This document shows positions 28,571 through 61,215 of a DNA stretch of 64,000 bases, in pieces; positions within the stretch are counted from its first letter, which is position 1, and every line of letters starts with the position of its first letter. The DNA comes from a phage, in the NCBI GenBank assembly GCA_024683775.1, contig GCA_024683775.1_4106.1, one strand, 5' to 3'. The translations under genes and the position numbers were made by a program. Below the pieces are notes generated by a model that was not told the DNA's origin, ran no database searches, and saw only the letters and a program-made list of their open reading frames with translations.

Positions 28571-29399
28571 TGAGTACTAGAGTGTAATAGAGTACAGGAA
28601 TGTGCTCGTTTAATCAAGAACGTAGCAGTACTGCCCCAAAAGTATTCAGTACTGAAGGTGTCGATATGCCACTAAGTAGGCAGAGGAAGTCTGCCGTACT
28701 TTGTAGTTTCCAAGCTCCTTTTCCATTTTGCAAATTACATCAAATGTAATCAAAAGTAATCACGCAATGATTAGTACTGAATTATTACTTTCACCTTAAT
28801 TTCAATTACCCTTTTACCCTTCGGGGTAAAATTCAATTACCCCTTGAGGCTCCAGCAAAAAGTTGGTTAGTACTCCATCCTAAATCTCGATCCTAAAAAT
28901 TTTGGAGTACCTATGAAATAAAAGTTGGATCTTCGAAAGTTGAAATTTACGTTGGGACGTTTATGATTTGTGGGATATAATGATGTTTGTAGTCGGGTAG
29001 TTCTCAAGAATATCAGTACTGAATGGTGAAAGAAAGTTATTGACATTATGATTCAGTACTGTATAATGTTCTACATAGGGTGATGAGTTGCTGCGAACAA
29101 TTCATTTACTCTACCTCCTGTCGTGAGACAGTACAGAAAAGATAGTTCCTCCTGTGGTGGTACATCTTTTTGAACCTCATATGAAAATCGTAATAACAGT
29201 ACTGATATTAACAGAATGGTATCAGTACTGATTTTAATCTAAAGCATTATGCCACCAGCACAAGCTGGTGGATTCCCTCTAACAGTATTCAGTACTACAT
29301 GATAGTCTTCATCCTCCTAGGGTAACATAGTGAGGGCTATGATGGCAGTACTGAATACTCCCTTTCAAAAGATAGATCTATGGTATAGTACTGACGGAT

Positions 29400-40369: not shown

Positions 40370-40627
40370 ATGGCAGTAGGATACGCGAAAGACGGGGCCG
40401 AACAAGACGAGATTCACGCAGTGATTCAGGCAGCCGTTAACCACGCTAGAAAGCAAATTAACGCACAAAGAGAATCACTGGTACATTGCCTCGACTGCGG
40501 CGATAAAATCCCTGAGAATCGACGCCAGGCCGTTATAGGGTGCATGTATTGTATTACTTGCCAGGAGGATCATGATAGTACTTTTAAAAGAGATCCGCGT
40601 AATTGTTGGCATAGATCTATGAGATAA
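40370..40627 (+). CDS. TraR/DksA-like C4 zinc-finger protein
   Basis: C-x2-C-x17-C-x2-C (CLDCGDKIPENRRQAVIGCMYCITC) with the conserved IP.[AE]RR.A motif typical of TraR/DksA zinc fingers; SD GAGG. Confidence 0.6.
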   Translation: MAVGYAKDGAEQDEIHAVIQAAVNHARKQINAQRESLVHCLDCGDKIPENRRQAVIGCMYCITCQEDHDSTFKRDPRNCWHRSMR

Positions 40628-40690: not shown

Positions 40691-41047
40691 ATGGGAATAC
40701 AACATATCACGCGTACTACTGACAATGGCGAGATCACTGGTTATCAGGTACAGGGCAAAGTAGCACAATTGCAGTACTGGTTTGTTAAACGTGGAATCAT
40801 TGCACCGGATCTTGATTATGACCGTGTAGCGTTTATTGATTCTCTTTATGTTGATCCTGATAGTCGGGGCAATGGTGAAGGTAACGAATTAATGAATGCC
40901 TTTATTGATGCCGCCGATGATTCAGATTGTATCATCTTAGAATGCGATACGGGAGAAGATAACGCCTTTAATCTTAAAGAATGGTACGAAGGTTTCGGAT
41001 TCGAGGTACTGATCGATAGTGAATATCCTATCATGATTTTATCATAG
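40691..41047 (+). CDS. hypothetical protein with weak GNAT-acetyltransferase-like motif
   Basis: VDPDSRGNGEGNELM resembles the GNAT motif A ([QR]-x-x-G-x-[GA]); TTGACA..TATAAT promoter at 40633-60. Confidence 0.4.
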   Translation: MGIQHITRTTDNGEITGYQVQGKVAQLQYWFVKRGIIAPDLDYDRVAFIDSLYVDPDSRGNGEGNELMNAFIDAADDSDCIILECDTGEDNAFNLKEWYEGFGFEVLIDSEYPIMILS

Positions 41048-44716: not shown

Positions 44717-45301
44717 ATGCGTAAATATACTAAATTCATCCGTACACTGTCAGAAATGGAAACCAACAAAGAGATCCTTTCAGCTTGTCGGTTAGCTGGC
44801 CTGGAGATCATCGGTGCTGGTTCTTCCCGTATAGTATTCGCTTTAAATGATCGGTTAGTGATTAAGGTCGCGAATTGTGATGCGGGTGTCGAACAAAATG
44901 AAACTGAATGTAAGGTATGGAATTTTTTAGACTATGACCGCCCTCAGTTGAAACAGTACTTTGCAAAGGTGCATATGCATTTATGCGATCCTGATAATAT
45001 GTTTATCGTTATGGATCGGTTGAGTACTGCAAGCAAAGGCAGTGTGAAGCACGTAAACGCGTGCAATGAATTAAAGTACAATATTAAACGTAATGCAATC
45101 GAACGCCAGCACCGCTTTGCTGATGCACTACAACACGTTGATGATACATTATCAACACTAACGATAAGAGATATCAGAAAACAGAATATCGGCCAGGATC
45201 GTAATGGACTTATTAAAGTACTTGATTACGGTTTAACCAGCAATATCTGGAATCAGTACTATAAAAAGCGTGATGTGGCAGCAAGTAAGGTAACACGATA
45301 A
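44717..45301 (+). CDS. putative protein kinase-like protein (194 aa)
   Basis: Motif order matches a kinase fold: GAGSSRIV (Gly-rich loop), VIKVA (VAIK-like Lys), IRDIRKQN (catalytic loop D..N), LDYG (DFG-like); SD AAGGAGAA. Confidence 0.5.
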   Translation: MRKYTKFIRTLSEMETNKEILSACRLAGLEIIGAGSSRIVFALNDRLVIKVANCDAGVEQNETECKVWNFLDYDRPQLKQYFAKVHMHLCDPDNMFIVMDRLSTASKGSVKHVNACNELKYNIKRNAIERQHRFADALQHVDDTLSTLTIRDIRKQNIGQDRNGLIKVLDYGLTSNIWNQYYKKRDVAASKVTR

Positions 45302-45312
45302 AAAAGATTAAA

Positions 45313-45340
45313 AAAGGGATTGACTCCGGTCAGTCCCTTT
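45313..45340 (+). terminator. conserved hairpin of the recurrent intergenic module (copy 3)
   Basis: AAGGGATTGACTCCGGTCAGTCCCTTT then GCTATTATATAT. Confidence 0.5.
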
Positions 45341-45525
45341 GCTATTATATATCCATTGAGAGATAACTCACTGACCCATAGGGTGCGGAAGTGTATCTAT
45401 TATATAAGTATTCAGTACTGAAAACTATTTGATAAAAAGTACTTGCAAACTATCTCAATGAGCGTATAATGTTTTATATCGAGAGGGGGAAATGGTTCTC
45501 CCTGGTACTAAAAGGAATCAAGACG

Positions 45526-45751: not shown

Positions 45752-45779
45752 TTGACAAAGTATATCAGTACTGTATAAT
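45752..45779 (+). promoter_or_regulatory. sigma70 consensus promoter
   Basis: TTGACA 45752-57, 16-bp spacer, TATAAT 45774-79; stem-loop GGGGAGAATAGTTCTCCCC 45792-45810. Confidence 0.7.
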
Positions 45780-48071: not shown

Positions 48072-48098
48072 AAAAGGGATTGACTCCGGTCAGTCCTT
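48072..48098 (+). terminator. conserved hairpin of the recurrent intergenic module (copy 4)
   Basis: AAGGGATTGACTCCGGTCAGTCCTTTT then GCTATTATATA. Confidence 0.5.
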
Positions 48099-48302
48099 TT
48101 GCTATTATATACGCATAGACAAAAACTAGCCCACAGGGTGCATAGGTGTATCCAAAATATATAGTTAATAACGGTGAGTAACTATCTGCTGGTGGAACTA
48201 AAACTATTAATAAAAAAGTATTGACAAAGTATATCAGTACTGCAATAATGTATCTCGTAGGGCGGCAATGGTGCGACGGCCCACAAAGTTAGGAGATTCA
48301 AA

Positions 48303-49403: not shown

Positions 49404-49432
49404 TGCGTAAAAGGATTTAGTACTGAATCATA

Positions 49433-49512
49433 AAAAAGTCAAGGCATTTTTAAACTTCAGCGTTAAAAAAATGCATAGGTAATCCCTTGACTTTTATGAA
49501 TAAAAAGGGATT
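49433..49512. other. nested inverted-repeat element at the boundary of the early region and the LGTNYQ array
   Basis: AAAAGTCAAGG (49433-44) pairs with CCTTGACTTTT (49485-95); inner GCATTTTTA/TAAAAATGC; adjacent AATCCCTT..AAGGGATT (49481-49512). Confidence 0.5.
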
Positions 49513-49652
49513 GGACTATGGCAAAATGCGTAGGGGGCTAAAGGGCGGGTAACCTTAGCGACTTCGATAAAGGGGTATTACTTATAAAATGTTATTGACT
49601 TTTTATATGAATCGTATATTATTGGATTGATATTATTTTTAATGGAGTCCCT

Positions 49653-49850
49653 ATGCGTATTTTAACTCAAGAAGAGCACAACCACACACTCATATCCAAC
49701 ATGGCATATATCCTACATATGTCACATATCCGTGGTATTGCATATAAGCGTGAATTGGTTATGAAACTTTTCATAGGAACTAACTATCAAGAAAAGTATA
49801 TCGAACTATACTTACAAGAATTACGAAGGGACATAAAAGGTAGACTATGA
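49653..49850 (+). CDS. LGTNYQ-family small protein, member 1
   Basis: 65-aa ORF; SD GGAG; core FIGTNYQEKY. Confidence 0.65.
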   Translation: MRILTQEEHNHTLISNMAYILHMSHIRGIAYKRELVMKLFIGTNYQEKYIELYLQELRRDIKGRL

Positions 49851-50047
49851 AAATGCGTATTTTAAATAAAGAAGATTATCAAGAACTGTTACGTAAAAAC
49901 ATGGTAAAGATTTATAACACAGACACAAACTTAGAACGAATTGAGTTATACCTTTTGATTACATTGGGAACAAGCTATCAGGGAAGATGGGTGATTCAAT
50001 ATATGGATGCATTGAAAAATGAAATATTATCCACGAGGAAACAATGA
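49847..50047 (+). CDS. LGTNYQ-family small protein, member 2
   Basis: ATGA overlap with previous stop; core LGTSYQGRW. Confidence 0.65.
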   Translation: MKMRILNKEDYQELLRKNMVKIYNTDTNLERIELYLLITLGTSYQGRWVIQYMDALKNEILSTRKQ

Positions 50048-50253
50048 AAACTATAACACGAACCCAATCATACGGTCTTATCTTGAGATACATGGACTTA
50101 ATGTTGGATATCAGAAAAGACCTTCCTAAAACTGCAATTGAAGTTGCAAGAGCAGAGATCCGCATGTTGGCTGTACTGAACACAAACCATCAGGAAGAGT
50201 ATGTTGACGATTGGATTCGATTTTTAATAGAAGATATTAAGAGGAAACTATGA
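50044..50253 (+). CDS. LGTNYQ-family small protein, member 3
   Basis: ATGA overlap; core VLNTNHQEEY. Confidence 0.65.
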   Translation: MKTITRTQSYGLILRYMDLMLDIRKDLPKTAIEVARAEIRMLAVLNTNHQEEYVDDWIRFLIEDIKRKL

Positions 50254-50462
50254 TTTTTTTAACACCAGAAGAATATAAGATACGTTTTGTTTCTGTCCAG
50301 AATAAAATCTTAATTATATACAATTCAAATGCAGACCTTAACTTATCAAGGGTATTAGAAAAAGATTTACTTATGGGTGCATTTTTGGATACAGACTTTC
50401 AGGTGTATTATGTAGGGGAATACTTAATTGCACTCCAGAATTACATTAAGAGTAAACTATGA
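50250..50462 (+). CDS. LGTNYQ-family small protein, member 4
   Basis: ATGA overlap; core FLDTDFQVYY; C-term ALQNYIKSKL. Confidence 0.65.
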   Translation: MIFLTPEEYKIRFVSVQNKILIIYNSNADLNLSRVLEKDLLMGAFLDTDFQVYYVGEYLIALQNYIKSKL

Positions 50463-50671
50463 ATAGCATTAACTCAAATCTATATACCGAACGCGTCGCT
50501 GCAAGACAACTTGAAATTCTCATAGTATATGAAGAGACTGATGATTTGAACTTAGCATTAGTATTGGAAAATGATATACTATTGGGTGCATTCCTCGGCA
50601 CAGATTATCAGGAGCACTTCTTGAATGAGTATATAATTGCACTCCAGAAATACATTAAGAGCAAACTATGA
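50459..50671 (+). CDS. LGTNYQ-family small protein, member 5
   Basis: ATGA overlap; core FLGTDYQEHF; close paralog of member 4. Confidence 0.65.
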   Translation: MNSINSNLYTERVAARQLEILIVYEETDDLNLALVLENDILLGAFLGTDYQEHFLNEYIIALQKYIKSKL

Positions 50672-50886
50672 AACATTTAAGTAATTCCGAGAAGAATAAA
50701 ATTATCATTGCTGCAATAAACAAATATTTTACACTTCCTCACACAGAAGGTTTATGTGTAAGGGAACACAGGATAAACACCACCGATATACGCATGATGG
50801 CTGTACTGGGGACGAACTTTCAGGAAGAGTATGTTGTTGCACACATAGTTGCCCTCACTGATCTAATAAGGGACAAATGTAAATGA
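50668..50886 (+). CDS. LGTNYQ-family small protein, member 6
   Basis: ATGA overlap; core VLGTNFQEEY. Confidence 0.65.
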   Translation: MKHLSNSEKNKIIIAAINKYFTLPHTEGLCVREHRINTTDIRMMAVLGTNFQEEYVVAHIVALTDLIRDKCK

Positions 50887-51140
50887 AACACTTAACACTA
50901 GATGAATATGAAACTATAGTCCGTAAACTAACCCCTATAGCAAGGATAGTCTACGATGACCCCAGCCTTACATGGAACCAAATGCGAGCTAAAGTTAATG
51001 AGCTATGGTTGCTGTACTTTATGGGGACTCAATATCAAGATAAGTTTTGCACAGAATATGTCGAACAATTAATGAATGTTATACAGGATAAACTAGATGA
51101 TTATTGGCTCACAAAACATGAAGACTTTATCAGGAGTTGA
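50883..51140 (+). CDS. LGTNYQ-family small protein, member 7
   Basis: ATGA overlap; core FMGTQYQDKF. Confidence 0.6.
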   Translation: MKHLTLDEYETIVRKLTPIARIVYDDPSLTWNQMRAKVNELWLLYFMGTQYQDKFCTEYVEQLMNVIQDKLDDYWLTKHEDFIRS

Positions 51141-51369
51141 GTATCAAACTGCCCTATTCTCTTTAATCCATACCCTTAGAAAAAACAATGCCTTACATGG
51201 TGCACCTGAAGTGGATGTTATCAACGGTGAACTTTATCTTATGAAATTCATTGGAACAAACTATCAAGATCTGTTCATTCAACGATACTTATCAGCATTA
51301 AGAAACCAAATCCAATATAAAACCATCAAGGCCAAAAAAGAATGGAATAAACAATGCGACACAGACTAA
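51118..51369 (+). CDS. LGTNYQ-family small protein, member 8
   Basis: Start chosen at ATG 51118 (tracked ORF starts 51097); core FIGTNYQDLF. Confidence 0.6.
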   Translation: MKTLSGVEYQTALFSLIHTLRKNNALHGAPEVDVINGELYLMKFIGTNYQDLFIQRYLSALRNQIQYKTIKAKKEWNKQCDTD

Positions 51370-51605
51370 ATCACAAAATGTATTGTAAACTATTACAGAC
51401 ACTGGCACAGAAACACTATGACACGGTATCTGGAATATTACCCTATGATATCATGCGTTTACTTCACTGTGAGGCCGAGATGCTTGTACTGATGACAGGC
51501 ACTGATAAAAAAGCAATTGTCAAATCAATAGATATGTTCATCGAAGCACAATGTCAACACATTAGAACCGAGATATGGAGGCGAGAGAATGATAACCCTA
51601 AATGA
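51354..51605 (+). CDS. LGTNYQ-family small protein, member 9 (divergent core LMTGTDKK)
   Basis: ORF in array; start uncertain. Confidence 0.5.
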   Translation: MRHRLNHKMYCKLLQTLAQKHYDTVSGILPYDIMRLLHCEAEMLVLMTGTDKKAIVKSIDMFIEAQCQHIRTEIWRRENDNPK

Positions 51606-51804
51606 GTTTCAGTATCATTGGAGATTACAAGCTATAAGAAGGAAAGTTGTTAGTATTTCTTTAGACAAGTCTATTGCACAAGAGGACAAATGTGTTATAA
51701 TAGCTGAAATGAAGTTGGGTGCTTTCGTAGGGACAAACTATCAAAACATCTACACTGACGTATTGTTAAGTGCCTTACGTAACAAGGTGATATCAAAAGA
51801 ATGA
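51589..51804 (+). CDS. LGTNYQ-family small protein, member 10
   Basis: core FVGTNYQNIY. Confidence 0.65.
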   Translation: MITLNEFQYHWRLQAIRRKVVSISLDKSIAQEDKCVIIAEMKLGAFVGTNYQNIYTDVLLSALRNKVISKE

Positions 51805-52019
51805 GAAAATTACAAGGCTTTGAATACATCAGACTCCTGAAAACATGCACCAGCAGAAGGAAAATCTTATCAAGCAACAAGAGCATCCCTGCCAACCTAA
51901 AACATGCAATGATAGCTGAACTCTATGTAGAAGCACTCATAGGGACAAACTATCAACAAATGTATATAGACATGTGGGTTGATGCATTAGTCAAGGAGAT
52001 CAAAAGTAAATGCAAATGA
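51801..52019 (+). CDS. LGTNYQ-family small protein, member 11
   Basis: ATGA overlap; core LIGTNYQQMY. Confidence 0.65.
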   Translation: MRKLQGFEYIRLLKTCTSRRKILSSNKSIPANLKHAMIAELYVEALIGTNYQQMYIDMWVDALVKEIKSKCK

Positions 52020-52228
52020 TTAATTTAAGTAAAGATGAATATTATGATCGTCTTGCAAAAACTTATCCAGCACGTAACGCCGTTTATAATAGTAACATTA
52101 TTGAACGCTCAAAGAAGTTGATTGTAGTAAATGAGATTAAGATGCTTTCAGTCTTAGGAACAAACTATCAAGAGAATGCTGTACTGTTGTTAATTGATGC
52201 CCTCAAGAGAGAGATACAAAGTAAATGA
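52010..52228 (+). CDS. LGTNYQ-family small protein, member 12
   Basis: core VLGTNYQENA. Confidence 0.65.
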   Translation: MQMINLSKDEYYDRLAKTYPARNAVYNSNIIERSKKLIVVNEIKMLSVLGTNYQENAVLLLIDALKREIQSK

Positions 52229-52461
52229 TTCATTTATCTTACCATGATTATCAAAAACGTTTAAATGCATCAAGGGATATAAGGATTCAAATCTTCAATA
52301 ACAAAAAATTGAAACCTGATAACAGAAGAATCAAAATGATAGAAGCAGAGTTATGCAACTTCCTGGGGACGAACTATCAGGCAGGTAAGGTAAAAAACTA
52401 TCTTAGAGAACTAATGAATTGTATCGAAAATAAATGCGATGCTTTGGAGAATAAAAAATGA
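52225..52461 (+). CDS. LGTNYQ-family small protein, member 13
   Basis: ATGA overlap; core FLGTNYQAGK. Confidence 0.65.
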   Translation: MIHLSYHDYQKRLNASRDIRIQIFNNKKLKPDNRRIKMIEAELCNFLGTNYQAGKVKNYLRELMNCIENKCDALENKK

Positions 52462-52715
52462 TCAATTTAAGTAAAGATGAATATACCGAGCGTATGACAA
52501 AAATTACACACAAACGTAATACAATCTATCACAACCAAAAAATTCAACACAGTAAGAAAATGATTATGATGCGTGAGTTAAAGATGGGTGTATTCTTGGG
52601 AACAAACTATCAAGAGCCAGAAGTAAATCGATTAATTGATGAGTTACTATTGGAAATCAAAGGTAAGCTGTACTTTTATCAAATGACCCGTCCACTAAGG
52701 TGTACTGATCGATGA
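52458..52715 (+). CDS. LGTNYQ-family small protein, member 14
   Basis: ATGA overlap; core FLGTNYQEPE; N-term MINLSKDEY like member 12. Confidence 0.65.
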   Translation: MINLSKDEYTERMTKITHKRNTIYHNQKIQHSKKMIMMRELKMGVFLGTNYQEPEVNRLIDELLLEIKGKLYFYQMTRPLRCTDR

Positions 52716-52954
52716 ATATTGTGAATAACATCAGATTAGCAGAAAGATTTGATAGAATTGGGGAAGCTATGAGAAGATACGATAAAGAATATGGTCATTT
52801 AAGCTTTACGATAGAAAAGAGATATGAACTTGAAGCAGAGTTTAAAATGCAGTTCCTTTTAGGTACACAGTATCAAAACCAATATGTAGAAAAATGGATT
52901 TCACTTTTAATCCAGACAATTTACGTAAGGAACATTAAATGCAAAATGAAATGA
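52712..52954 (+). CDS. LGTNYQ-family small protein, member 15
   Basis: ATGA overlap; core LLGTQYQNQY. Confidence 0.65.
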   Translation: MNIVNNIRLAERFDRIGEAMRRYDKEYGHLSFTIEKRYELEAEFKMQFLLGTQYQNQYVEKWISLLIQTIYVRNIKCKMK

Positions 52955-53175
52955 TATACTTAACACATGATGAGTTAACAGAAAGACTAGATAAATCCAA
53001 AAAACTTACAAAATATCTTCCACACAACCCAAACCAAACCCCAGCAGAAAGGAGTGCAGAAGTTTTATTCCAAACATTACCATACCTTCTTGGAACTGAT
53101 AGGCAAGAGTATCATATTGAACGTATAATTAAATATCTCAAAATTACTATTATGGAAAAAGTAAATGCAAAGTGA
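52939..53175 (+). CDS. LGTNYQ-family small protein, member 16
   Basis: core LLGTDRQEYH; N-term MQNEMIYLTHDEL. Confidence 0.6.
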   Translation: MQNEMIYLTHDELTERLDKSKKLTKYLPHNPNQTPAERSAEVLFQTLPYLLGTDRQEYHIERIIKYLKITIMEKVNAK

Positions 53176-53395
53176 AATGATATACTTAACGAATGAAGAA
53201 TTTCAAGAGAAGATGTTAAAAGCCAATAACATTACTCTTAAGTTCGTTCCAAATCAATCAATATATGAAATGTCTGCGAATGTATTGTTTCAGAAGCTAC
53301 CATACGTTCTTGGAACTGATAAACAAGAATTTATGGTTCAAAATATGATTGAACATCTTGTAATGAGTATTAAGGAAAAAGTAAATGCAAAATGA
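53165..53395 (+). CDS. LGTNYQ-family small protein, member 17
   Basis: core VLGTDKQEFM; N-term MQSEMIYLTNEEF; start could be the second ATG (53177). Confidence 0.6.
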   Translation: MQSEMIYLTNEEFQEKMLKANNITLKFVPNQSIYEMSANVLFQKLPYVLGTDKQEFMVQNMIEHLVMSIKEKVNAK

Positions 53396-53642
53396 AATGA
53401 AATACTTAACAGACGATGAGTTAAAAGAACGATTAATTAAATCCAGAAAACTTACAAATCAACTTCCAAACGACACAAACAAGTCACCTGCCGAAAGGAG
53501 TGCAGAAGTTTTATACATTCAACTCATGTACTTTCTTGGAACTGACAGACAAGAGTATTACATTGAAAGTATGCTTCGATATCTTAAATTCTCTATAAAG
53601 GAAAAGATACATGCTCAAGAATTTAAAAATCCTAACAGTTAA
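53385..53642 (+). CDS. LGTNYQ-family small protein, member 18
   Basis: core FLGTDRQEYY; paralog of member 16. Confidence 0.6.
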   Translation: MQNEMKYLTDDELKERLIKSRKLTNQLPNDTNKSPAERSAEVLYIQLMYFLGTDRQEYYIESMLRYLKFSIKEKIHAQEFKNPNS

Positions 53643-53868
53643 TGAATATCATAAGATTGTAATGAAAACTAATAGTGCAATTTCTAAAAAATCAAACCCA
53701 AAGTACATACTGGAACACACATTTGAAGAACGTCAATTAGCTTTAGTTGAAGCAAAACTTCTTGCACTCCTAGGAACAAACTATCAGGAAGAATACATCA
53801 GAAAACTAATATACCTTTTAACTAAACACATCAGGAAAAGAAAAAAGCATGAAGCACTTGACAGATGA
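53611..53868 (+). CDS. LGTNYQ-family small protein, member 19
   Basis: core LLGTNYQEEY. Confidence 0.6.
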   Translation: MLKNLKILTVNEYHKIVMKTNSAISKKSNPKYILEHTFEERQLALVEAKLLALLGTNYQEEYIRKLIYLLTKHIRKRKKHEALDR

Positions 53869-54079
53869 TGAACATGGGCTTATAGTAATGGATGTAATCA
53901 ACATCGAATACAAAAAGTTGATACGCTACCGTTGTTATGAAGATAAGCAACTCGTTCTAGCAGAACAGAAGTTGTTTCGACTCTTAAACACAAACTTCCA
54001 AGCACAATACGAAGAATCGTATATGTACCTTTTGGCGAGGAAAGCAAAAAGAGATTATGAAAATTTTAAGCCACAGTGA
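53849..54079 (+). CDS. LGTNYQ-family small protein, member 20
   Basis: core LLNTNFQAQY. Confidence 0.6.
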   Translation: MKHLTDDEHGLIVMDVINIEYKKLIRYRCYEDKQLVLAEQKLFRLLNTNFQAQYEESYMYLLARKAKRDYENFKPQ

Positions 54080-54272
54080 ACAAACAGAATTGTTAATCTT
54101 TAATACAAGTAAATTCTTAAACATAACATTGTCTGATATAGATGAGGATGAAAAAGAGTTACTTAGAGCAGATTTAAGAGTTCTTTTATATATTGGAACT
54201 AACTTCCAAGAGCAATTCGTTGAGGACTACATCGATGAACTTAAAGAATCTGTACTGAGAACATGCAAATGA
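54057..54272 (+). CDS. LGTNYQ-family small protein, member 21
   Basis: core YIGTNFQEQF. Confidence 0.6.
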   Translation: MKILSHSEQTELLIFNTSKFLNITLSDIDEDEKELLRADLRVLLYIGTNFQEQFVEDYIDELKESVLRTCK

Positions 54273-54505
54273 AAATCCTTTCACCAAGTGAATACCACGA
54301 ACTATTAAGTAGTTTAATTCTAAAATTGTATATAGCAAAGACCACAGATTTACCTGATGAAGAAAAAAATATTCTAATGAGTGAAATCTATGTTAATTCT
54401 ACCCTAGGGACTAACTATCAAGAATGTAATATTAATGATTACATCAAAGAACTAAAAAGGTTTATCCAATGCAAATGCGAATCATTACTGAAACAGAATA
54501 CCTAA
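54263..54505 (+). CDS. LGTNYQ-family small protein, member 22
   Basis: core TLGTNYQECN; N-term MQMKILSPSEY. Confidence 0.6.
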   Translation: MQMKILSPSEYHELLSSLILKLYIAKTTDLPDEEKNILMSEIYVNSTLGTNYQECNINDYIKELKRFIQCKCESLLKQNT

Positions 54506-54711
54506 CAATCTTAAATGGACTGTTTTTGAAGTTATTTGCCATTAACACATCAAAACTACCAGATACTGATAAAATTATTAAGTTAAATGAAATCTATGTT
54601 CAAGCTACACTGGGAACTAACTATCAAGAAGCCAATGTGTATAATTACATTAATACACTCAAAAGGGTAATAAAATTAAAATGCACAAACAGCCAATACA
54701 CAAACCCCTAG
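54469..54711 (+). CDS. LGTNYQ-family small protein, member 23
   Basis: core TLGTNYQEAN; close paralog of member 22. Confidence 0.6.
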   Translation: MQMRIITETEYLTILNGLFLKLFAINTSKLPDTDKIIKLNEIYVQATLGTNYQEANVYNYINTLKRVIKLKCTNSQYTNP

Positions 54712-54911
54712 GAACAGCAGAATACATTGAACTAATGGCTGCAAACTTCTCATCCTTTAAGAAACTGATGCAAGAATCAAATAATGATTTAGAATATCAC
54801 ATCAAAAGTTCAGATTTAAGATTGCTACTCACTCTAGGAACAGATTCCCAAGAGCGATTTGTCAATGAGCATATTAGAGCACTTTTAAATGGCATCAGGA
54901 ATAAACTATGA
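54681..54911 (+). CDS. LGTNYQ-family small protein, member 24
   Basis: core TLGTDSQERF. Confidence 0.6.
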   Translation: MHKQPIHKPLGTAEYIELMAANFSSFKKLMQESNNDLEYHIKSSDLRLLLTLGTDSQERFVNEHIRALLNGIRNKL

Positions 54912-55123
54912 AGGAAATATCAAATCAAGAGTACTTGGCACTATTCAGGAAGAATAATCACAAATATATGGCACTTGATTCAAGAACTGATATAAGTGAA
55001 CTTCAGAAAAATCTTTTGCGTTCAGAGATGATAGTACTGACACTCTTAGGAACACAGCATCAAGAGAGAACTGTTAATTCACACATAGAGATTCTTATGC
55101 AGATAGTACAGGAAAAGATATGA
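54908..55123 (+). CDS. LGTNYQ-family small protein, member 25
   Basis: ATGA overlap; core LLGTQHQERT. Confidence 0.65.
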   Translation: MKEISNQEYLALFRKNNHKYMALDSRTDISELQKNLLRSEMIVLTLLGTQHQERTVNSHIEILMQIVQEKI

Positions 55124-55341
55124 GAATCATAACACAACAAGATATTCTTAAGTTCACAAGGGTTCATGCATCTGAATTTGATGCTATATTATCAAAAAGT
55201 TACAACAACCCTTATACAGAAGATGTACATTACAGTGAATTATGGATGTATATACTTTTAGGTACAAATAAGCAAGAGCAAGCAGTACAGAAGTATTTGA
55301 CAGCTTTACGTGATGCTACAGCTAATGGAGTACGTGTTTAA
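55120..55341 (+). CDS. LGTNYQ-family small protein, member 26
   Basis: ATGA overlap; core LLGTNKQEQA. Confidence 0.65.
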   Translation: MRIITQQDILKFTRVHASEFDAILSKSYNNPYTEDVHYSELWMYILLGTNKQEQAVQKYLTALRDATANGVRV

Positions 55342-55342
55342 T

Positions 55343-55594
55343 ATGAAAGTACTGACAGAACTAGAAATGTATCATAGATTTAATAAGTACTATCATTTAC
55401 TTAAGCCTATACAGAGGATTAAATGTCCATTTGAAGAGAAACAGGTTTTAATCTATGAGCACAAGTTCTTTGTATCATTAGGTACAGATCAACAAGAGTA
55501 CTATTTGACGTTGTACTTGATTACATTAATAGATTTCATTCACTATAAAACCACACAATCTAAACAAGCTAATAAAGAGAAATATGAAAACTAA
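55343..55594 (+). CDS. LGTNYQ-family small protein, member 27
   Basis: Start chosen at ATG 55343 right after previous stop (tracked ORF starts 55310); core SLGTDQQEYY. Confidence 0.6.
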   Translation: MKVLTELEMYHRFNKYYHLLKPIQRIKCPFEEKQVLIYEHKFFVSLGTDQQEYYLTLYLITLIDFIHYKTTQSKQANKEKYEN

Positions 55595-55922
55595 TATAAA
55601 ACTCAAGGTATATAAATCATTTGCAAGTACATACATCAAATGCCATACATGTAACTCTGTAATGGACTACAAAGGTAAGCCATTTGCACTTACTTATGAT
55701 AATACAAGAGGTTTTTATATATCTTTTGCTGATTACAAATATAACATGTACGAACACATTGACATTGAAGATTTAAGTACTTTATCTGAAGAGGAATACT
55801 TTCAAGAATCATTAGTATGGGATTTGGAGTTTCCTATGCCATTAGTACATAAAATGATAGTACTAATAAAAGAAACTAAACCTGTACCTAATGGTTATGA
55901 AGAACACATTATTGAGTATTAA
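55584..55922 (+). CDS. EE-FQ family protein (112 aa); near-duplicate of 55937
   Basis: C-terminal half DLSTLSEEEYFQESLVWDLEFPMPLVHKMIVLIKETKP almost identical to the next gene; cysteines C-x2-C near N-terminus. Confidence 0.65.
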   Translation: MKTNIKLKVYKSFASTYIKCHTCNSVMDYKGKPFALTYDNTRGFYISFADYKYNMYEHIDIEDLSTLSEEEYFQESLVWDLEFPMPLVHKMIVLIKETKPVPNGYEEHIIEY

Positions 55923-55936
55923 TATATAAGGTAACT

Positions 55937-56278
55937 ATGAAAACTAATATACAACTCAATGTATACAGTTCAGAAGAACATACATATATCAAATGCAGTC
56001 TATGTAAAGATGTAATGGACTACAAAGGTAAGCCATTCACAATTACTTATGATTCTGATGTTAATGATTTATATATATCATTTCTTAATTACGAAAAGAA
56101 AATATACAAGCACGTTGATATTAAAGATTTAAGTACTTTATCAGCAGAGGAATACTTTCAAGAATCATTAGTATGGGATTTAGAATTTCCTATGCCATTA
56201 GTACATAAAATGGTAGTCCTAATGAAAGAAGCTAAACCGGAGTTTAATGGTTATGAAGAACACATCGTTGAGTACTGA
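55937..56278 (+). CDS. EE-FQ family protein (113 aa); near-duplicate of 55584
   Basis: SD AAGG; C-terminal half near-identical to the previous gene. Confidence 0.65.
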   Translation: MKTNIQLNVYSSEEHTYIKCSLCKDVMDYKGKPFTITYDSDVNDLYISFLNYEKKIYKHVDIKDLSTLSAEEYFQESLVWDLEFPMPLVHKMVVLMKEAKPEFNGYEEHIVEY

Positions 56279-56281
56279 ACA

Positions 56282-56497
56282 ATGAAAATATTATCATACG
56301 AAGATTACCGCAAGCTTCGCGGTATTTTGCGACCAGAAATTCAAAGAATTAATTCTCTTCCTATATCTAATGCAGAATGTTCAGTACTGAAAGATGAGTT
56401 AATATTAAAACACACAGTAGGAACTAACTATCAAGCTGATAGTGTTCGATATCTAATTTGGGGATTAATATGCATAGTAAAGGAAAAACAAGCTTGA
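56282..56497 (+). CDS. LGTNYQ-family small protein, member 28
   Basis: 71-aa ORF; core TVGTNYQADS. Confidence 0.6.
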   Translation: MKILSYEDYRKLRGILRPEIQRINSLPISNAECSVLKDELILKHTVGTNYQADSVRYLIWGLICIVKEKQA

Positions 56498-56553
56498 CAG
56501 TACTTTTCATTACTGATATAGTACCTGTACGTTAATCATTAGGGTAGAAAATT

Positions 56554-56799
56554 ATGTTGAATTTTTTAAATTTCCTTATCGTCTTGTGTATTGTTCTTGG
56601 GATTGCACCATTTGTATTGTATTTCATGGATTCCGATGAAATGCAAAAGATGAATTGCACAAGGACAGGACAGAGTAGAGAAGAGACGATTCTTATGCCT
56701 GTTACCGTTATTGTTAATAATATGCCCATTACAAACATGGTCCCTACCCTAACGACAACGTACCAGTACTCTTGTACAGACGGAGAGAGGTGGAGATAA
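56554..56799 (+). CDS. small membrane protein (81 aa), N-terminal TM helix
   Basis: N-term MLNFLNFLIVLCIVLGIAPFVLYF; promoter-like CTTGACA at 56505; SD AGGGTAGAAAA. Confidence 0.55.
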   Translation: MLNFLNFLIVLCIVLGIAPFVLYFMDSDEMQKMNCTRTGQSREETILMPVTVIVNNMPITNMVPTLTTTYQYSCTDGERWR

Positions 56800-57122
56800 T
56801 GCGTAAGTTCAATTGTATTGTACGTAAGAATTCATGTTACATTGTAGTAGCTGATTTTAATACAGGTTCTGGGTTGAAGATATTTGAGTACAGAAAATGC
56901 AATAATTCTTTTCATTGGAAATTGGGTGCAAGAAAAGCAAAAACAATTTCAGTACCGAATTTATGTTCTATCTCTGAAGAAGAAGAGTTTCAGTACTTGT
57001 TAGTACATGATGATTCTTTAGGATTTACATTCGAAGATATGAAGGAAGTACAAAAGCAGATGATTGCACATTGTCATCTTCCACCGAATTTTGTTCAACG
57101 CGTATGTGAATTCTACATATAA
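56799..57122 (+). CDS. EE-FQ family protein (107 aa)
   Basis: Start chosen at ATG 56799 overlapping the upstream TAA, SD GGAGAGAGGTGGAG; motif EEEEFQYLLVHDDSLGF. Confidence 0.6.
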   Translation: MRKFNCIVRKNSCYIVVADFNTGSGLKIFEYRKCNNSFHWKLGARKAKTISVPNLCSISEEEEFQYLLVHDDSLGFTFEDMKEVQKQMIAHCHLPPNFVQRVCEFYI

Positions 57123-57131
57123 GAGAAGAAT

Positions 57132-57443
57132 ATGAAATTTAATATAGCAAAAACATCGAGTATATGTATTTTTGGTTATGCAGAAGAGTTAGGTGATATT
57201 GACATTCTTTTGTACAAAAAGGATGGTGTTATGCATTTCAAGTACCAGGATGAAGAGGCAGACAATTATCTTTTACCTAATTTAGTACAAATGCAGGAAG
57301 AGGAATTATTCCAGTACAGCTTAATATACGACATTGATATTTGCACGATGCCAGTATTAATTAGTATTCAAAAAGTGATGCTCGATATGTATGATAATTT
57401 AATACAAGGTACAGCAGGGATAACCAAACATGTCAATATATAA
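57132..57443 (+). CDS. EE-FQ family protein (103 aa)
   Basis: SD AGAGAAGAA; motif EEELFQYSLIYDIDICTMP. Confidence 0.6.
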   Translation: MKFNIAKTSSICIFGYAEELGDIDILLYKKDGVMHFKYQDEEADNYLLPNLVQMQEEELFQYSLIYDIDICTMPVLISIQKVMLDMYDNLIQGTAGITKHVNI

Positions 57444-57636
57444 GGATTTACCTAATGCATATATGTTGAAGTATAAAGAGTTTATTAAAGATGTATATGT
57501 AGATCCGTTCAATATAAAATTATCAGAGTTCGATGTATCATTTTATCTAGGGACAATAGTACAGGAACAATACGTTGATAAGCTCATAAGGTGCATGAAA
57601 AATGAGATTCGATGGAGATTAGATGCAAATGTATAA
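57430..57636 (+). CDS. LGTNYQ-family-like small protein, member 29 (core YLGTIVQEQY)
   Basis: 68-aa ORF with a divergent family core. Confidence 0.55.
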   Translation: MSIYKDLPNAYMLKYKEFIKDVYVDPFNIKLSEFDVSFYLGTIVQEQYVDKLIRCMKNEIRWRLDANV

Positions 57637-57880
57637 AAAGATAGATGCTTATTTGTATGCTTCAAAGTACAGGGATTTTTGTTTACGAGGGGGAGAGGAA
57701 GATTTCGCTCTGAGATTATCTGAATTTAATATGTTATTTTATCTTGGTACAAAAGAACAAGAAGATACAGTACAGAAATTTCTCAATCATCTTGTACAAA
57801 AAATTAATATGCAAATTTTGATGCTTAAGTTACAGAATGAGATAAATGAATATGAATCCAGAAATAGTTCAGGATCTTAA
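57623..57880 (+). CDS. LGTNYQ-family-like small protein, member 30 (core YLGTKEQEDT)
   Basis: 85-aa ORF, paralog of 57430. Confidence 0.55.
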   Translation: MQMYKKIDAYLYASKYRDFCLRGGEEDFALRLSEFNMLFYLGTKEQEDTVQKFLNHLVQKINMQILMLKLQNEINEYESRNSSGS

Positions 57881-58589: not shown

Positions 58590-59150
58590 ATGAATGATAT
58601 TGAGTTATTGGTACATAAGATTTGCACAATATCGTTAGTGCTGAACAATGCGAATACAGTACAGAGTTCCCTTTTAAGAATTAATAAAGTTGGGAGTAGT
58701 TTATATTTGGAAGTAAAAGCTGGTTTTGCAGGACAGTACAATGATAAAATCAAAGAAGAAGTTAAGGGAAATGAAGATGCTTTCATTGAGGTTTGTGCAA
58801 CAGTTGGTTCAAATCCAATTTCAGTATCACCTTTAATGCGAAATGAAAATTCAGAATTTGATTCCAGTTTTGAAGGTTATTTGTGGTACAATTATGGTGA
58901 TGATTATTTTATATATCAAAATTCCAAAACGGATTATAGTGAAGAAGGTATAAAATTCATTGATCCTTACAATGAAGCAGAAGTATTTCAGACATCCCTA
59001 ATATACAATACAAATCAAATGAAGTATCTTATGTTGTTTAGTACAATGCATTTGAATCCATTGAAAGATAATTTAAAATTTTTCATTCGTTTAGAATTAG
59101 TTGATATTGCTTATGATCTTTTAATGCAAGGATATAGTTATGAAGTATAA
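58590..59150 (+). CDS. EE-FQ family protein (186 aa)
   Basis: SD AAGGAATA; motif EAEVFQTSLIYNTNQM. Confidence 0.6.
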   Translation: MNDIELLVHKICTISLVLNNANTVQSSLLRINKVGSSLYLEVKAGFAGQYNDKIKEEVKGNEDAFIEVCATVGSNPISVSPLMRNENSEFDSSFEGYLWYNYGDDYFIYQNSKTDYSEEGIKFIDPYNEAEVFQTSLIYNTNQMKYLMLFSTMHLNPLKDNLKFFIRLELVDIAYDLLMQGYSYEV

Positions 59151-59451
59151 AATGCTGTATACATTAACATTAATATATGTAGAATTAGAATCCGATTCAG
59201 ATGCATGGAATTTGGTTAAAGAGGTCGATACCAATCAATGGTACATGGCAAATTTAGACGAACATGTTGTTACGGATTATTTTATAGATTTTAATACATT
59301 ATCTGAAGAAGAATTTTTCCAAATGCAATTGGTGGTTGACATGTACGGACATGACATGGTAACATTAAGAAATATACAGAAAGTCGTTAATGAATTCCAA
59401 AGCAAGAAAGATTATGAGGTAGGAGCGTATTATGACATCGACGTACAGTGA
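59140..59451 (+). CDS. EE-FQ family protein (103 aa); paralog of 59457
   Basis: Motif LSEEEFFQMQLVVDMYGHD; N-term MKYKMLYTLTLIYVELESD. Confidence 0.6.
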   Translation: MKYKMLYTLTLIYVELESDSDAWNLVKEVDTNQWYMANLDEHVVTDYFIDFNTLSEEEFFQMQLVVDMYGHDMVTLRNIQKVVNEFQSKKDYEVGAYYDIDVQ

Positions 59452-59456
59452 AAGCA

Positions 59457-59798
59457 ATGAGTACAATAGTTATGATATATAAAATGCTTTATACAGTATC
59501 GGGGATATATGTAGAATTAGAACCCGATTATCCAGATGGATGGAATTTTATTAAACGCTCCGAAAGAAATACATGGCACATGGCACATTTGGATAATGAC
59601 GTAATATTAGACAATTTTGTGGATTTTAATACATTATCAGAAGAAGAATTCTTCCAAATGCAATGTGTGCTTGACACAAAAGGATTTGATGTGCTATTAT
59701 TAAAGAATATACAGAAAGCTGTTAACGAATTAATATCCAATGACGAGTTAGGCAAAGTGAGGCTGTTCCATGATCTCGAAGTACCGTACCAGCAATGA
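59457..59798 (+). CDS. EE-FQ family protein (~113 aa); paralog of 59140
   Basis: Tracked ORF begins at GTG 59448; first ATG is 59457, and ATG 59472 (MIYKMLYTV) is also possible; motif LSEEEFFQMQCVLDTKGFD. Confidence 0.55.
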   Translation: MSTIVMIYKMLYTVSGIYVELEPDYPDGWNFIKRSERNTWHMAHLDNDVILDNFVDFNTLSEEEFFQMQCVLDTKGFDVLLLKNIQKAVNELISNDELGKVRLFHDLEVPYQQ

Positions 59799-60339
59799 AA
59801 TTCAGTACACCTACGCTAATGCAATCCTAATGGGACAAAAGTTAGCTTGTATTGTTGCAGCCTTATATAATGTACAAAAAGCAGCACATAATAAAAAACC
59901 ATATACAAGAATCATTAACGCATTCATGGGGTTTAAACCATCTGATTTTGATTCACATATTGCGTGCACAAGTTATTTTGACAAACGATTCAATACACCT
60001 GATACCCCAAATGCCCGTAGTGTTATTAGTCTTTTACAGTTTAATCCAACACCAGTTATATCAAAGAATGATTTGGATTACACATGGTACAATTCAAATC
60101 AAGATTCATTTTATTCTAATGATCAATCGATTGAATATAATAAAATTAAATCAGAGGAAGCATTTTTTCAGGAATCATTATTTACACATGAACGTTCTTT
60201 GTTTTATAGTGTTATGTTGAGTACAGTATACAATAGTCCATTACACAAGAATAACAAAATTAATTTCAGTTTTTGTGCTTATGCGATTGATGGTGTTTAT
60301 GAGTGCTTAATGGAGGTATTGAGTTATGAAGCTGAATAA
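59770..60339 (+). CDS. EE-FQ family protein (189 aa)
   Basis: Motif EEAFFQESLFTHERSLF; overlaps previous gene by 29 nt. Confidence 0.55.
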   Translation: MISKYRTSNEIQYTYANAILMGQKLACIVAALYNVQKAAHNKKPYTRIINAFMGFKPSDFDSHIACTSYFDKRFNTPDTPNARSVISLLQFNPTPVISKNDLDYTWYNSNQDSFYSNDQSIEYNKIKSEEAFFQESLFTHERSLFYSVMLSTVYNSPLHKNNKINFSFCAYAIDGVYECLMEVLSYEAE

Positions 60340-60667
60340 TACATTTGATATTAAGAAGTTAAGAGAATGGTTTTATAGTATTGAAATTGAAGCCATTCCT
60401 TATCATAGATATGAACAAAGTGATTTACAAAGTATTGATATCAGAGAGTTGTACAAATATTATCAGAGTGCATTAGAGATGCATAAGTTATTTTTGAGTA
60501 CAAATTTCATTCTAAATTACAATTTTGAGGAATTTAATAATTATAATTTAGTACAGAAATATGTAGTAGCAAAGTACATGTACAATCAAGGTATCAAAGG
60601 TTGCCTCGAATTCAATACCGTTCTTATTTTAGTTGAGGTAATTTTATGCACCGCATGTCTGATTTAG
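60326..60667 (+). CDS. hypothetical protein (113 aa)
   Basis: ORF overlapping neighbours on both sides. Confidence 0.5.
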   Translation: MKLNNTFDIKKLREWFYSIEIEAIPYHRYEQSDLQSIDIRELYKYYQSALEMHKLFLSTNFILNYNFEEFNNYNLVQKYVVAKYMYNQGIKGCLEFNTVLILVEVILCTACLI

Positions 60668-61143
60668 AGTTCAGTTTAGATGCAGCCTTTAAATTTGTTC
60701 ACAAAATTGAAACAATATATCGTACATTATGTGCAATAACATCAGTATCAAAAGAGTTTGATGTTGGTGAAAGGTATCAGGTGTGGAATAATTCATTTTA
60801 TAATAAAGAACATTCTGCGACGGCATTTTATATTTTAGCATTTAATCCCAGCAATTGTTACCCAGAGAAGCATGAACGTTATCCAAATGACGACATGTGG
60901 TTTGAGTACAAAGAAGATGCTGATATGTCGTCAATTGTAGTTCCTGATGATTTTAATGCACAAGATTTAACAGAAGAGTGGTGGTTCCAGCAGAATTTAG
61001 TACATGATGATATTGATTTATTTTTCTATATTGCATTTAAAATGCTTTATCACAACAATATAGTTAAAGAAAGTTTATCGTTTTCATGTCTATATATTGA
61101 TGATTTGTACAATGAAATTCAAATAAACATGCCTGTATCGTAA
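60646..61143 (+). CDS. EE-FQ family protein (165 aa)
   Basis: Motif EEWWFQQNLVHDDIDLFFY. Confidence 0.6.
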   Translation: MHRMSDLEFSLDAAFKFVHKIETIYRTLCAITSVSKEFDVGERYQVWNNSFYNKEHSATAFYILAFNPSNCYPEKHERYPNDDMWFEYKEDADMSSIVVPDDFNAQDLTEEWWFQQNLVHDDIDLFFYIAFKMLYHNNIVKESLSFSCLYIDDLYNEIQINMPVS

Positions 61144-61215
61144 GATATGGGCTTTTTTTGTTTGACACGAGTACAAATGCATGGTACAATGTGTAATCAT
61201 TTTAAGGAGATACCT

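Follow-up and report, generated by a model that had tools for sequence, protein, structure and literature searches.

A tandem array of thirty diverged paralogs of one small protein beside the terminal repeat of an Asteriusvirus jumbo phage

The 64-kb stretch of phage DNA analysed here (contig GCA_024683775.1_4106.1; hereafter the window) carries exactly 30 plus-strand paralogs of a protein of about 70 amino acids (aa). Twenty-seven of them form a contiguous block at 49653-55594, the others start at 56282, 57430 and 57623, and the array takes up about 2% of the genome. It amounts to a viral multigene family, in which a single ~70-residue cytoplasmic protein with a predicted four-helix fold is present as 30 diverged copies; these arose in RaK2-like jumbo phages through repeated rounds of local tandem duplication. 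As for their role, the best reading, which we put forward tentatively, is that the genes encode diversified binders, made early and by coupled translation, whose targets would be host or competitor factors. By megablast of the region, the source phage is an Asteriusvirus, that is, one of the PBECO4/121Q/phAPEC6-like, RaK2-like jumbo myophages of E. coli and Salmonella. The best records, Ecwhy_1 and WPEC5, are 96.5% identical, and every feature annotated beneath the match is a 'hypothetical protein'.

The protein family and its predicted fold

An earlier, sequence-only reading of this DNA had counted 30 paralogs at these coordinates, and that count stands. A hidden Markov model (HMM) built from the 30 members was run against all six-frame open reading frames (ORFs) of the window and matched the same 30 entries of the ORF list, with no others at E<0.1. 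As a guard against circularity, leave-one-out HMMs were used as well, and these recovered 29 of the 30 members at E<=1e-8. An independent model from PHROGs, phrog_4148, matches six of six members tested over its full 74-position profile (E=1e-4 to 3e-23), and distant fused members likewise match it. Member 9 (51354-51605), which keeps the GT of the core and has K in place of Q51, fails the leave-one-out test (E=4.9). When the profile of its orthologs is aligned by hhalign with that of the other members, the probability is 94% (E=1e-7), and the AlphaFold model of member 9 has the family's helix order and topology at a predicted local distance difference test score (pLDDT) of 82.7; member 9 is a divergent homolog of the family. 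The reading frame is intact in all 30 members. The array is a real, protein-coding family, since the HMM scans, the leave-one-out tests and the PHROGs model agree, the ratio of nonsynonymous to synonymous substitution rates (dN/dS) is below 1 and AlphaFold predicts a confident fold.

In an alignment of the 30 products, pairwise identity averages 24% and ranges from 12 to 64%. Neighbouring members are more alike than distant ones (mean identity 0.30 versus 0.24, permutation p=5e-5), which confirms the local duplication that had been proposed, and the close groups named at that time, 4/5, 16/17/18 and 22/23, are indeed mutual nearest relatives.

With the 30 paralogs as its sole alignment, AlphaFold2 models member 22 with a pLDDT of 97.5 and a predicted template modelling score (pTM) of 0.82. 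In the model, the helices span residues 6-15, 17-24, 30-44 and 51-77, and residues 2 and 47 are joined by a beta-bridge of one residue. The predicted fold is thus a small four-helix domain that would fold on its own, in keeping with an initial guess of a small helical bundle. No member has a hydrophobic segment long enough for a membrane protein. The products differ widely in charge, with isoelectric points (pI) of 4.4-9.9 (median 8.1, about one third of the members being acidic) and net charges of -7 to +9.

The motif layout around an L-G-T-N-Y-Q-E core, as first described, recurs across relatives: over 244 members of nine phages, T48 is invariant, G47 is kept in 90% and Q51 in 97%. In the same set, the low-entropy columns are the core hydrophobics together with E8, E39, G47, T48 and Q51, and most other columns exceed 3.3 bits. 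Among the 30 products, L62 is nearly invariant, and an N-terminal L-[TS]-x-x-E-Y and a C-terminal Lys are conserved too. Two polar motifs are situated at helix starts in the model, helix 1 being preceded by [TS]5-x-x-E8 and helix 4 by G47-T48-x-x-Q51, and both appear to have the form of N-terminal capping boxes. This interpretation makes use of the established rules of helix capping. Because the motif would form such a box, LGTNYQE is most simply taken as a determinant of the fold and not as an active site.

The products belong to no characterized protein family, the searches of Pfam, of the Protein Data Bank (PDB) by sequence and by fold, and of PADLOC all being empty. Six members scanned against Pfam match no family at E<=1, SUKH/Imm immunity, helix-turn-helix and nucleic-acid-binding families included; one member gives sub-threshold noise to DAM-like and LEM domains. 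The best PDB hits have E=0.48 for the sequence profile and E=2.8 for Foldseek, a viral structure library returns Asteriusvirus paralogs alone, and PADLOC yields scattered single-member noise without a match. There is no sequence or fold similarity to solved anti-defence inhibitors (Acb2, Tad1/2, Ocr, anti-CRISPRs and others). A UniRef cluster name attached to one ortholog, 'DUF3885 domain-containing', was set aside, as that entry has no precomputed Pfam domain and the six scanned members match no Pfam family; the ortholog itself was not compared with the DUF3885 model. Given the superficial likeness of the L-G-T turn and the long helix after it to a helix-turn-helix, the basic C-terminal residues of many members and the basic median pI, the paralogs might be imagined as small DNA- or RNA-binding regulators, each with its own site, in which the LGT-x-x-Q turn plays a helix-turn-helix-like part. 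We regard this as highly improbable, and the helix-turn-helix or DNA-binding class was rejected: Pfam has no such match, whether helix-turn-helix or another nucleic-acid-binding family, at the threshold just given, no DNA-binding fold stands above background in the PDB search, and the members are not uniformly basic, a third of them being acidic with pI down to 4.4.

Mass spectrometry of the phAPEC6 virion identified 62 proteins (PMC7247149 Table 1), none of which comes from the gene range of the array, a range that includes the family member gp481c. On the basis of this proteome, the array proteins are non-structural and not virion-associated.

Genomic setting, gene organization and distribution

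The array is located directly downstream of the long direct terminal repeat of the genome. The deposited genome of phage vB_Ec-M-J has its physical ends and includes a direct terminal repeat of 21,525 bp; its left physical end maps to window position 28675, and its right end terminates at ...GGGCGGGTAACCT, which corresponds to window position ~49555. The terminal repeat of fEgEco12, of 20,993 bp, was confirmed by PhageTerm and restriction digests (PMC13070987), and its coordinates, when transferred to the window, give a boundary that agrees with ~49555. From these mapped ends it follows that the window holds a collapsed copy of the repeat (28675-49555, ~20.9 kb) and that the array, which begins at 49653, lies ~100 bp inside the unique region and outside the repeat boundary, with no other transcription unit of that region closer to the left repeat. 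The inner repeat boundary itself is a GC-rich sequence (GCGTAGGGGGCTAAAGGGCGGGTAACCT, followed across the boundary by TAGCGACTTCG), which is conserved in most Asteriusvirus genomes examined, the divergent Turkey5 included, and which may be a terminase or repeat-generation site.

The gap of 249 nucleotides (nt) that precedes the array contains, in this order, a modest hairpin with a T-run, the conserved repeat boundary and a promoter. The sequence-only reading had placed large inverted repeats and a single promoter region here, in an area that, as it turns out, also holds the terminal-repeat boundary at ~49555. Inverted repeats are present at 49430-49500, although they are modest rather than large: the plus-strand element at 49434-49495 has a pair of 15-nt arms with 93% complementarity, followed by a T-run, and the fold centroid forms the hairpin with a z-score of -2.05. 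It is probably the terminator of the last terminal-repeat gene. A sigma-70-like promoter, TTGACT-N16-TATTAT, was found by promoter scan at 49595-49622 on the plus strand, 40 bp into the unique region, with 10 of 12 consensus positions. That it is the single promoter is uncertain, given further 11/12 matches at 53858 and 56494. The TTGACT-N16-TATTAT promoter is kept in six other Asteriusvirus genomes; PBECO4, A4 and a distant metagenomic contig, L014, have a different, TTGACA promoter ahead of the array, and a TTGAC[AT] promoter thus precedes the array in every lineage examined. PBECO4 and A4 also carry an extra gene inserted at the repeat boundary. In A4 this is a 272-aa endonuclease-like gene (phrog_681; L005 4996-5814), possibly a homing endonuclease, exactly between the repeat boundary and the array; in PBECO4 a different, 121-aa orphan gene occupies the same spot (L002 4152-4517).

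From 49653 onwards the genes are packed without gaps, whereas the interior of the repeat consists of small, mutually unrelated early-type genes with spacers of ~85 nt. All 26 junctions of the contiguous block are either overlapping or separated by at most 2 nt, in agreement with the overlapping arrangement first noticed: 14 are ATGA overlaps, 4 are gaps of +1 or +2 nt and 8 are overlaps of 13-31 nt. Several annotated N-terminal extensions vanish when the family-aligned Met is used as start. A Shine-Dalgarno motif is weak or absent at many array starts. To judge from this layout, the array seems to be organized as a translationally coupled polycistronic operon.

The individual genes, all on the plus strand, are given here with family-aligned Met starts and with leave-one-out E-values. 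Member 1 (65 aa; 49653-49850; E=8.6e-12) has a GGAG Shine-Dalgarno motif upstream, member 2 (49853-50047; E=7.7e-13) has an alternative start at 49847, and member 3 (50044-50253; E=2.2e-14) joins the preceding gene by an ATGA overlap. Member 4 (50250-50462; E=5.1e-15) has its closest paralog, with 51% identity, in member 5 (50459-50671; E=6.2e-13). Then come member 6 (50668-50886; E=9.2e-16), member 7 (50883-51140; E=7.3e-18), which matches phrog_4148 at E=6e-21, and member 8 (51118-51369, alternative start 51097; E=6.3e-12). Beyond the divergent member 9 lie member 10 (51589-51804; E=3.3e-13), member 11 (51801-52019; E=8.3e-18), which also matches phrog_4148, member 12 (52016-52228, alternative start 52010; E=1.2e-19) and member 13 (52225-52461; E=2e-18), for which tblastn finds a match in 36 of 36 Asteriusvirus records. 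They are followed by member 14 (52458-52715; E=2.3e-19), member 15 (52712-52954; E=6.7e-11) and the related trio of member 16 (52951-53175, alternative start 52939; E=1.8e-13; 64% identity to member 18), member 17 (53177-53395, alternative start 53165; E=6.6e-13) and member 18 (53397-53642, alternative start 53385; E=6.4e-18). Members 19 (53611-53868; E=1.3e-15), 20 (53849-54079; E=9.9e-9) and 21 (54057-54272; E=8.8e-19) precede the modelled member 22 (54269-54505, alternative start 54263; E=1e-20) and its relative, member 23 (54475-54711, alternative start 54469; E=8.5e-19). The block closes with members 24 (54681-54911; E=8.9e-14), 25 (54908-55123; E=2.5e-16), 26 (55120-55341; E=1.4e-11) and 27 (55343-55594, alternative GTG start 55310; E=4.2e-11). 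Member 28 (56282-56497; E=3.1e-9) is separated from it by two genes of a second paralog family, and members 29 (57430-57636; E=9e-9; phrog_4148 E=1e-4) and 30 (57623-57880; E=5.7e-9) both have a divergent N-terminus.

The first convincing plus-strand terminator downstream is an intrinsic-terminator-like site at 61131-61152, with a 9-bp stem followed by TTTTTTTGTT; between 49600 and 61131 this strand has only a weak 5-bp stem, at 55168. Transcription from 49595 may end at this site, and the unit would then probably extend over further paralog families downstream of the array. No transcriptome, ribosome-profiling or gene-essentiality data for any Asteriusvirus were found in the literature.

Within the repeat, three perfect TTGACA-N16-TATAAT promoters are located in spacers at 45752, 46246 and 47774. 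Compact terminator-promoter units occupy two further spacers (45313-45348 and 48073-48108), each being a 12-bp-stem hairpin (AAAGGGATTGACTCCGGTCAGTCCCTTT) with a TTGACT -35 box within its 5' arm and TATTAT 17 nt further on. The repeat genes at 40370-40627, 40691-41047 and 44717-45301 code for a zinc-finger protein resembling DksA, for an acetyltransferase and for a product that carries a Ser/Thr kinase annotation in relatives. In Klebsiella relatives, the corresponding region has YeeU-like antitoxin, YafQ-like toxin and ParE-like genes. The gene content of the terminal repeat fits an early host-manipulation module. From the repeat boundary and promoter position, the presence of a TTGAC[AT] promoter in all lineages and the nearby repeat genes, we infer that the array, too, is expressed early.

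The family is narrow in range. By tblastn against a phage collection, it occurs in 36 of 36 Asteriusvirus records and nowhere else. A word-indexed search of 5.8 billion proteins gave 124 matches, all on ~350-kb Asteriusvirus-type contigs or short fragments. An exhaustive HMMER search of 1.84 billion cluster representatives (E<=1e-3) returned 94 proteins, and those clusters whose context was examined are all in RaK2-like jumbo phages. With the exception of one fusion of 269 aa, these proteins measure 52-122 aa, and the idea that the array might be the debris of a decayed longer family is not borne out. The family is, however, older than the genus Asteriusvirus, since weak matches trace to L014, Muenster and L017. 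The first of these, a 101-kb contig about equidistant from Klebsiella RaK2-type phages and Asteriusvirus, has 16-17 members, with spaced early genes and then a packed array. In Klebsiella phage Muenster (Alcyoneusvirus), ~12 members are grouped by twos and threes in the 17 kb that follow a 20,030-bp terminal repeat, and the first two post-repeat genes belong to the family. L017, a distant RaK2-like relative with 29% GC, has 6. A link to phage G by way of the low-GC contigs L013 and L017 was considered and dropped: L017 is the RaK2-like phage just mentioned, and L013 matched no record of the phage collection.

Copy number varies among nine Asteriusvirus genomes: Turkey5 has 21 members, A4 23, 121Q 25, SD-15_S21 27, UE-S1 28, vB_Ec-M-J 29, the source phage and ph0011 30 each, and PBECO4 31. 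The count for the Salmonella phage SD-15_S21 includes one fusion, whose reading frame contains two family domains one after the other (L004 9016-9351). The 269-aa fusion, P0195 (L010 10001-10810), combines an N-terminal family domain with an unrecognizable C-terminal region of ~200 aa and is present in several ~350-kb contigs; the extra regions of P0195 and of two other fused members, P0196 and P0204, have no match in Pfam or PHROGs. Complete contigs of Asteriusvirus size (345-360 kb) were also encountered in assemblies deposited as E. coli isolates, namely L010-L012 (GCA_036253055.1, GCA_036253035.1 and GCA_036254115.1) and many matches of the 5.8-billion-protein search, which suggests that cultured isolates often harbour such phages or are accompanied by them.

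Selection on the paralogs and possible roles

Comparison with orthologs in eight other genomes shows purifying selection. Reciprocal-best orthologs are mostly syntenic, pooled dN/dS (Nei-Gojobori; omega) is 0.27-0.42, and every member is below 1; adjacent terminal-repeat genes have values of ~0.2 and genes downstream of the array 0.33-0.48. Per-column ratios of nonsynonymous to synonymous polymorphism (pN/pS) among orthologs are 0.02-0.16 at E39, G47, T48, Q51 and L62, and purifying selection on the scaffold is thereby shown. They rise to ~0.8 at column 60 and at columns 7, 11 and 15, whose i, i+4, i+8 spacing forms a stripe along a single side of helix 1. Diversifying or positive selection was not detected in the pooled per-column pN/pS.

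Divergence from relatives is uneven. Within one phage pair, ortholog identity ranges from 47% to 100%; with PBECO4, member 20 is 100% and member 15 is 47% identical. Compared with Turkey5, the synonymous divergence (dS) is 2.06 in the array versus 0.18 in the adjacent repeat genes. This contrast places the array in a hyperdivergent accessory region, in which the ancestry of alleles is much deeper than in the neighbouring repeat, a pattern expected from recombinational exchange of old alleles.

These data bear directly on the idea that the array is largely dispensable duplicated DNA, produced by unequal recombination beside the repeat and left to drift under weak selection, adding length and little function; it corresponds to how Hua et al. 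2017 read such arrays, as 'genome expansion by tandem duplication'. Similarity does track adjacency, copy number varies, surface positions are near neutral, omega is ~0.4, twice that of the neighbouring repeat genes (~0.2), and the sole published remark on such arrays treats them purely as evidence of duplication (PMC5646251). Nevertheless, all 30 frames are intact with every omega below 1 despite divergence to ~24% identity, whereas copies without selection would have become pseudogenes; the scaffold columns are strongly constrained (pN/pS 0.02-0.16), the tight ATGA packing has been maintained and the family persists in at least four RaK2-like lineages. Dispensability is therefore distinctly unlikely in our estimation.

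There is one trace of constraint at the level of codons. Asn49 is encoded by AAC in 15 cases and by AAT in 1, against a background of 39:70, and Tyr50 by TAT in 15 cases and by TAC in none, against 72:47 (examples are found at 51733-51738 and 52160-52165). No comparable bias is seen in the remaining conserved columns of Tyr and Glu or in N-Y pairs at other places of the window. It could be imagined from this synonymous constraint in the core, which reflects no general preference for the N-Y codon pair, that the periodic unit is a nucleic-acid signal, GGnACnAACTATCAAGA repeated every ~215 bp, with the reading frames being incidental. Such a signal is hardly credible: the bias is limited to two codons while flanking synonymous sites vary freely, a search of 48-64 kb against Rfam gave no match to any family, and selection on the protein is evident from the dN/dS values, from the confidently predicted fold and from a hydrophobic periodicity that is conserved. 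The bias is missing from the arrays of L014 and Muenster, where the protein keeps only G-[TS]-x-x-Q, and a deep nucleic-acid signal was rejected for that reason. A gene-conversion tract was likewise rejected as its origin, as the flanking synonymous sites are not homogenized.

Somewhat more room is left for a role of the paralogs in the phage's own programme, which we nonetheless consider unlikely. They would then be adaptors or regulators sharing one partner, or subunits of mixed oligomers; specificity subunits for a phage or host enzyme and timers of early-to-middle expression are examples. Conservation of E8, E39, E52 and K69 in the 244 members fits a shared docking site, near-equal co-expression from a coupled operon would suit complexes, gene order is kept in most genomes, and there is no site class with omega >1. 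On the other hand, the conserved polar residues occupy helix N-capping positions in the model and are possibly purely structural, no member has been detected in the virion, a pI span of 4.4-9.9 is wide, and a range of 6 to 31 copies among relatives is hard to square with a fixed assembly.

We favour a panel of binders because one scaffold is combined with many surfaces, variable copy number, a near-end position and a deep, mosaic ancestry of alleles. According to this proposal, host sigma-70 RNA polymerase would initiate at 49595-49622, 40 bp beyond the inner edge of the left repeat, once the phage DNA has entered, and a single long polycistronic messenger RNA would be produced. Termination-reinitiation at ATGA and overlapping junctions would carry ribosomes from cistron to cistron, and with such coupled translation all paralogs would be made together, early in infection. 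Each product would fold on the common scaffold, held by the hydrophobic core and the two putative N-capping boxes ([TS]5-x-x-E8 and G47-T48-x-x-Q51), and the presumably exposed faces of helices 1, 2 and 4 would vary from copy to copy, with charges from strongly acidic to strongly basic. Each copy could then neutralize or redirect a different host factor or variant, be it a defence protein, a toxin or a takeover target; factors of competitor phages are possible targets as well. The analysis shows the family with its anatomy, position and distribution, the variation in copy number, purifying selection and the absence of members among the virion proteins detected in phAPEC6; early timing, the single transcript, translational coupling and binder function are what we infer. 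The suggestion of diversified binders or inhibitors that accompanied the first description of the array fits the conserved scaffold, the variable surface and the pI range of 4.4-9.9; no group of sites has omega >1.

Several observations weigh against the proposed panel of binders. No column has pN/pS >1, the pooled per-column maximum being ~0.84, and the variable surface could result from relaxed constraint instead of an arms race. Phages of E. coli and of Salmonella have largely the same gene order, without any pattern that follows the host, and the copies, with a mean identity of 24%, are too old for a recent accordion response. If the conserved polar residues E8, E39, E52 and K69 are surface-exposed, they may point to one shared partner and not to many. 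No sequence or fold link to a known anti-defence, immunity or antitoxin family was found. Finally, the region has no more promoter-like matches than its shuffled versions have.

Known systems, neighbouring families and meaning

The array had been called undescribed. It is uncharacterized, but that wording was overstated, as phrog_4148 (unknown function) is the identical protein family and a published sentence may refer to the array. The PHROGs entry is an automatic cluster with no name, structure, function or genomic description, in which the tandem array is unrecorded. Hua et al. 2017 (PMC5646251) devote one sentence to >30 very similar genes, read as tandem duplication, and this remark is echoed in the phAPEC6 paper and in a 2026 review (PMC13282480). 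Phage 121Q, a close relative of the source phage, carries an orthologous array with 25 members by HMM. The remark gives no coordinates, family definition or function, and the array members, with a mean identity of 24%, are not 'very similar'. No member was traced from phage G, tblastn having matched only Asteriusvirus, and the full phage G genome was not profile-scanned. Since there are no coordinates and the genome has a second large array of RCC1-like genes, it is unclear which of the two was meant, and the remark may concern either. No paper was found that defines the family, its position at the repeat boundary, its fold, distribution or function. We are therefore dealing with a family already catalogued and possibly glimpsed in 2017, a viral tandem multigene family on an uncharacterized scaffold without detectable relatives.

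That second array consists of 18 consecutive genes of ~260-450 aa on the minus strand at 962-23470, with mutual hit identities of ~30%, which match the PHROGs family 'regulator of chromosome condensation' (RCC1-like beta-propeller). In phAPEC6, eleven RCC1-like proteins were counted, and homologs are virion proteins annotated as 'DNA condensation protein'. It may be the array meant by the published '>30 very similar genes'. Beyond the 27-gene block, in among the last array members and downstream of them, there are six paralogs of ~103-116 aa (55584-55922, 55937-56278, 56772-57122, 57132-57443, 59140-59451 and 59457-59798; phrog_13866/33987), the first two of which share 80-86% DNA identity, and two or three proteins of ~165-189 aa (58590-59150, 59770-60339 and 60646-61143; phrog_19795/22855). 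The region of 49.6-62 kb is in this way a run of tandem gene families of unknown function.

With some known systems the array shares an architecture. African swine fever virus has terminal multigene families, MGF100/110/360/505, and immune evasion has been demonstrated for some such viral families. These families and the ankyrin and kelch families of poxviruses resemble the array in being near-end tandem paralogs with variable copy number, a common fold and a non-structural nature; there is no sequence or fold relation, and the array members are far smaller (~70 aa) and, as their junctions suggest, translationally coupled. Poxviruses also provide the 'genomic accordions' (Elde et al. 2012 as cited in PMC13359090). 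The array has the hallmarks of a multigene family, that is, near-terminus tandem paralogs in variable copies, and not those of a strict accordion with recent near-identical copies, its maximum identity being 64%.

Among phages, T-even genomes offer examples of amplification, of which T4 tifA/ToxIN is one. Another is T6 SegB/Septu, with segmental amplification of anti-defence loci (PMC13096335). Such amplifications and the array have in common the tandem expansion of a phage gene region, which in T-even phages is linked to overcoming host defence, and the possible homing endonuclease of A4 between terminal repeat and array (phrog_681) can be counted as a further likeness. However, the T-even amplifications are recent, near-identical, unstable and lab-selected, whereas the array is ancient, diverged and stably inherited across the genus. 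The host-takeover module in the terminal redundancy of SPO1 is another point of comparison. The pre-early genes of T5/BF23 form a similar module (PMC10644984). Here, too, many tiny early genes at a genome end go together with a long direct terminal repeat and use of the host polymerase, but they are unrelated, have their own promoters and lie inside the repeat, so that they fit 28675-49400 and not the array, which is just outside the repeat, of one family and without intergenic spacers or promoters. Bacterial polyimmunity loci, finally, are tandem sets of diversified immunity proteins against polymorphic toxins (PMC3482391, PMC3113570). They resemble the array as long tandem runs of small diverged paralogs on one scaffold that are read as a panel of specific binders; in the array there is no SUKH/Imm homology and no adjacent toxin gene, and it resides in a virulent phage and not in a bacterial chromosome.

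By analogy with these systems, the array might be to phages what terminal multigene families are to giant eukaryotic viruses, or polyimmunity loci to bacteria, with a new four-helix scaffold serving as a modular binder, although we regard this extension as rather doubtful. In one version, each paralog would neutralize a different host defence effector or toxin variant. In the other, the conserved polar patch (E8/E39/Q51/E52/K69) would dock all copies on a single machine of the host, a protease or RNA polymerase for instance, and the variable faces would recruit the victims. If true, it would be the first natural 'binder library' described in a bacteriophage, and new anti-defence proteins could be drawn from it in abundance.

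Jumbo phages consist mostly of genes without known function, and how they counter the defences of enterobacteria is largely unknown outside the nucleus-forming group. The array deserves attention in that it offers 30 versions of one tiny protein, with a confidently predicted fold unlike any solved, in what would be the first-expressed position, clade-wide and in variable copy number. Asteriusvirus phages are in development for therapy against pathogenic E. coli and Salmonella, so that the determinants of their host range matter. If the array is dispensable, it provides a clean example of duplication inflating jumbo genomes. If, instead, the copies are diversified inhibitors, they would constitute a ready panel of new anti-defence and host-takeover proteins, a compact natural scaffold for engineered binders, and a bacterial-virus parallel to the host-range multigene families of African swine fever virus and poxviruses.

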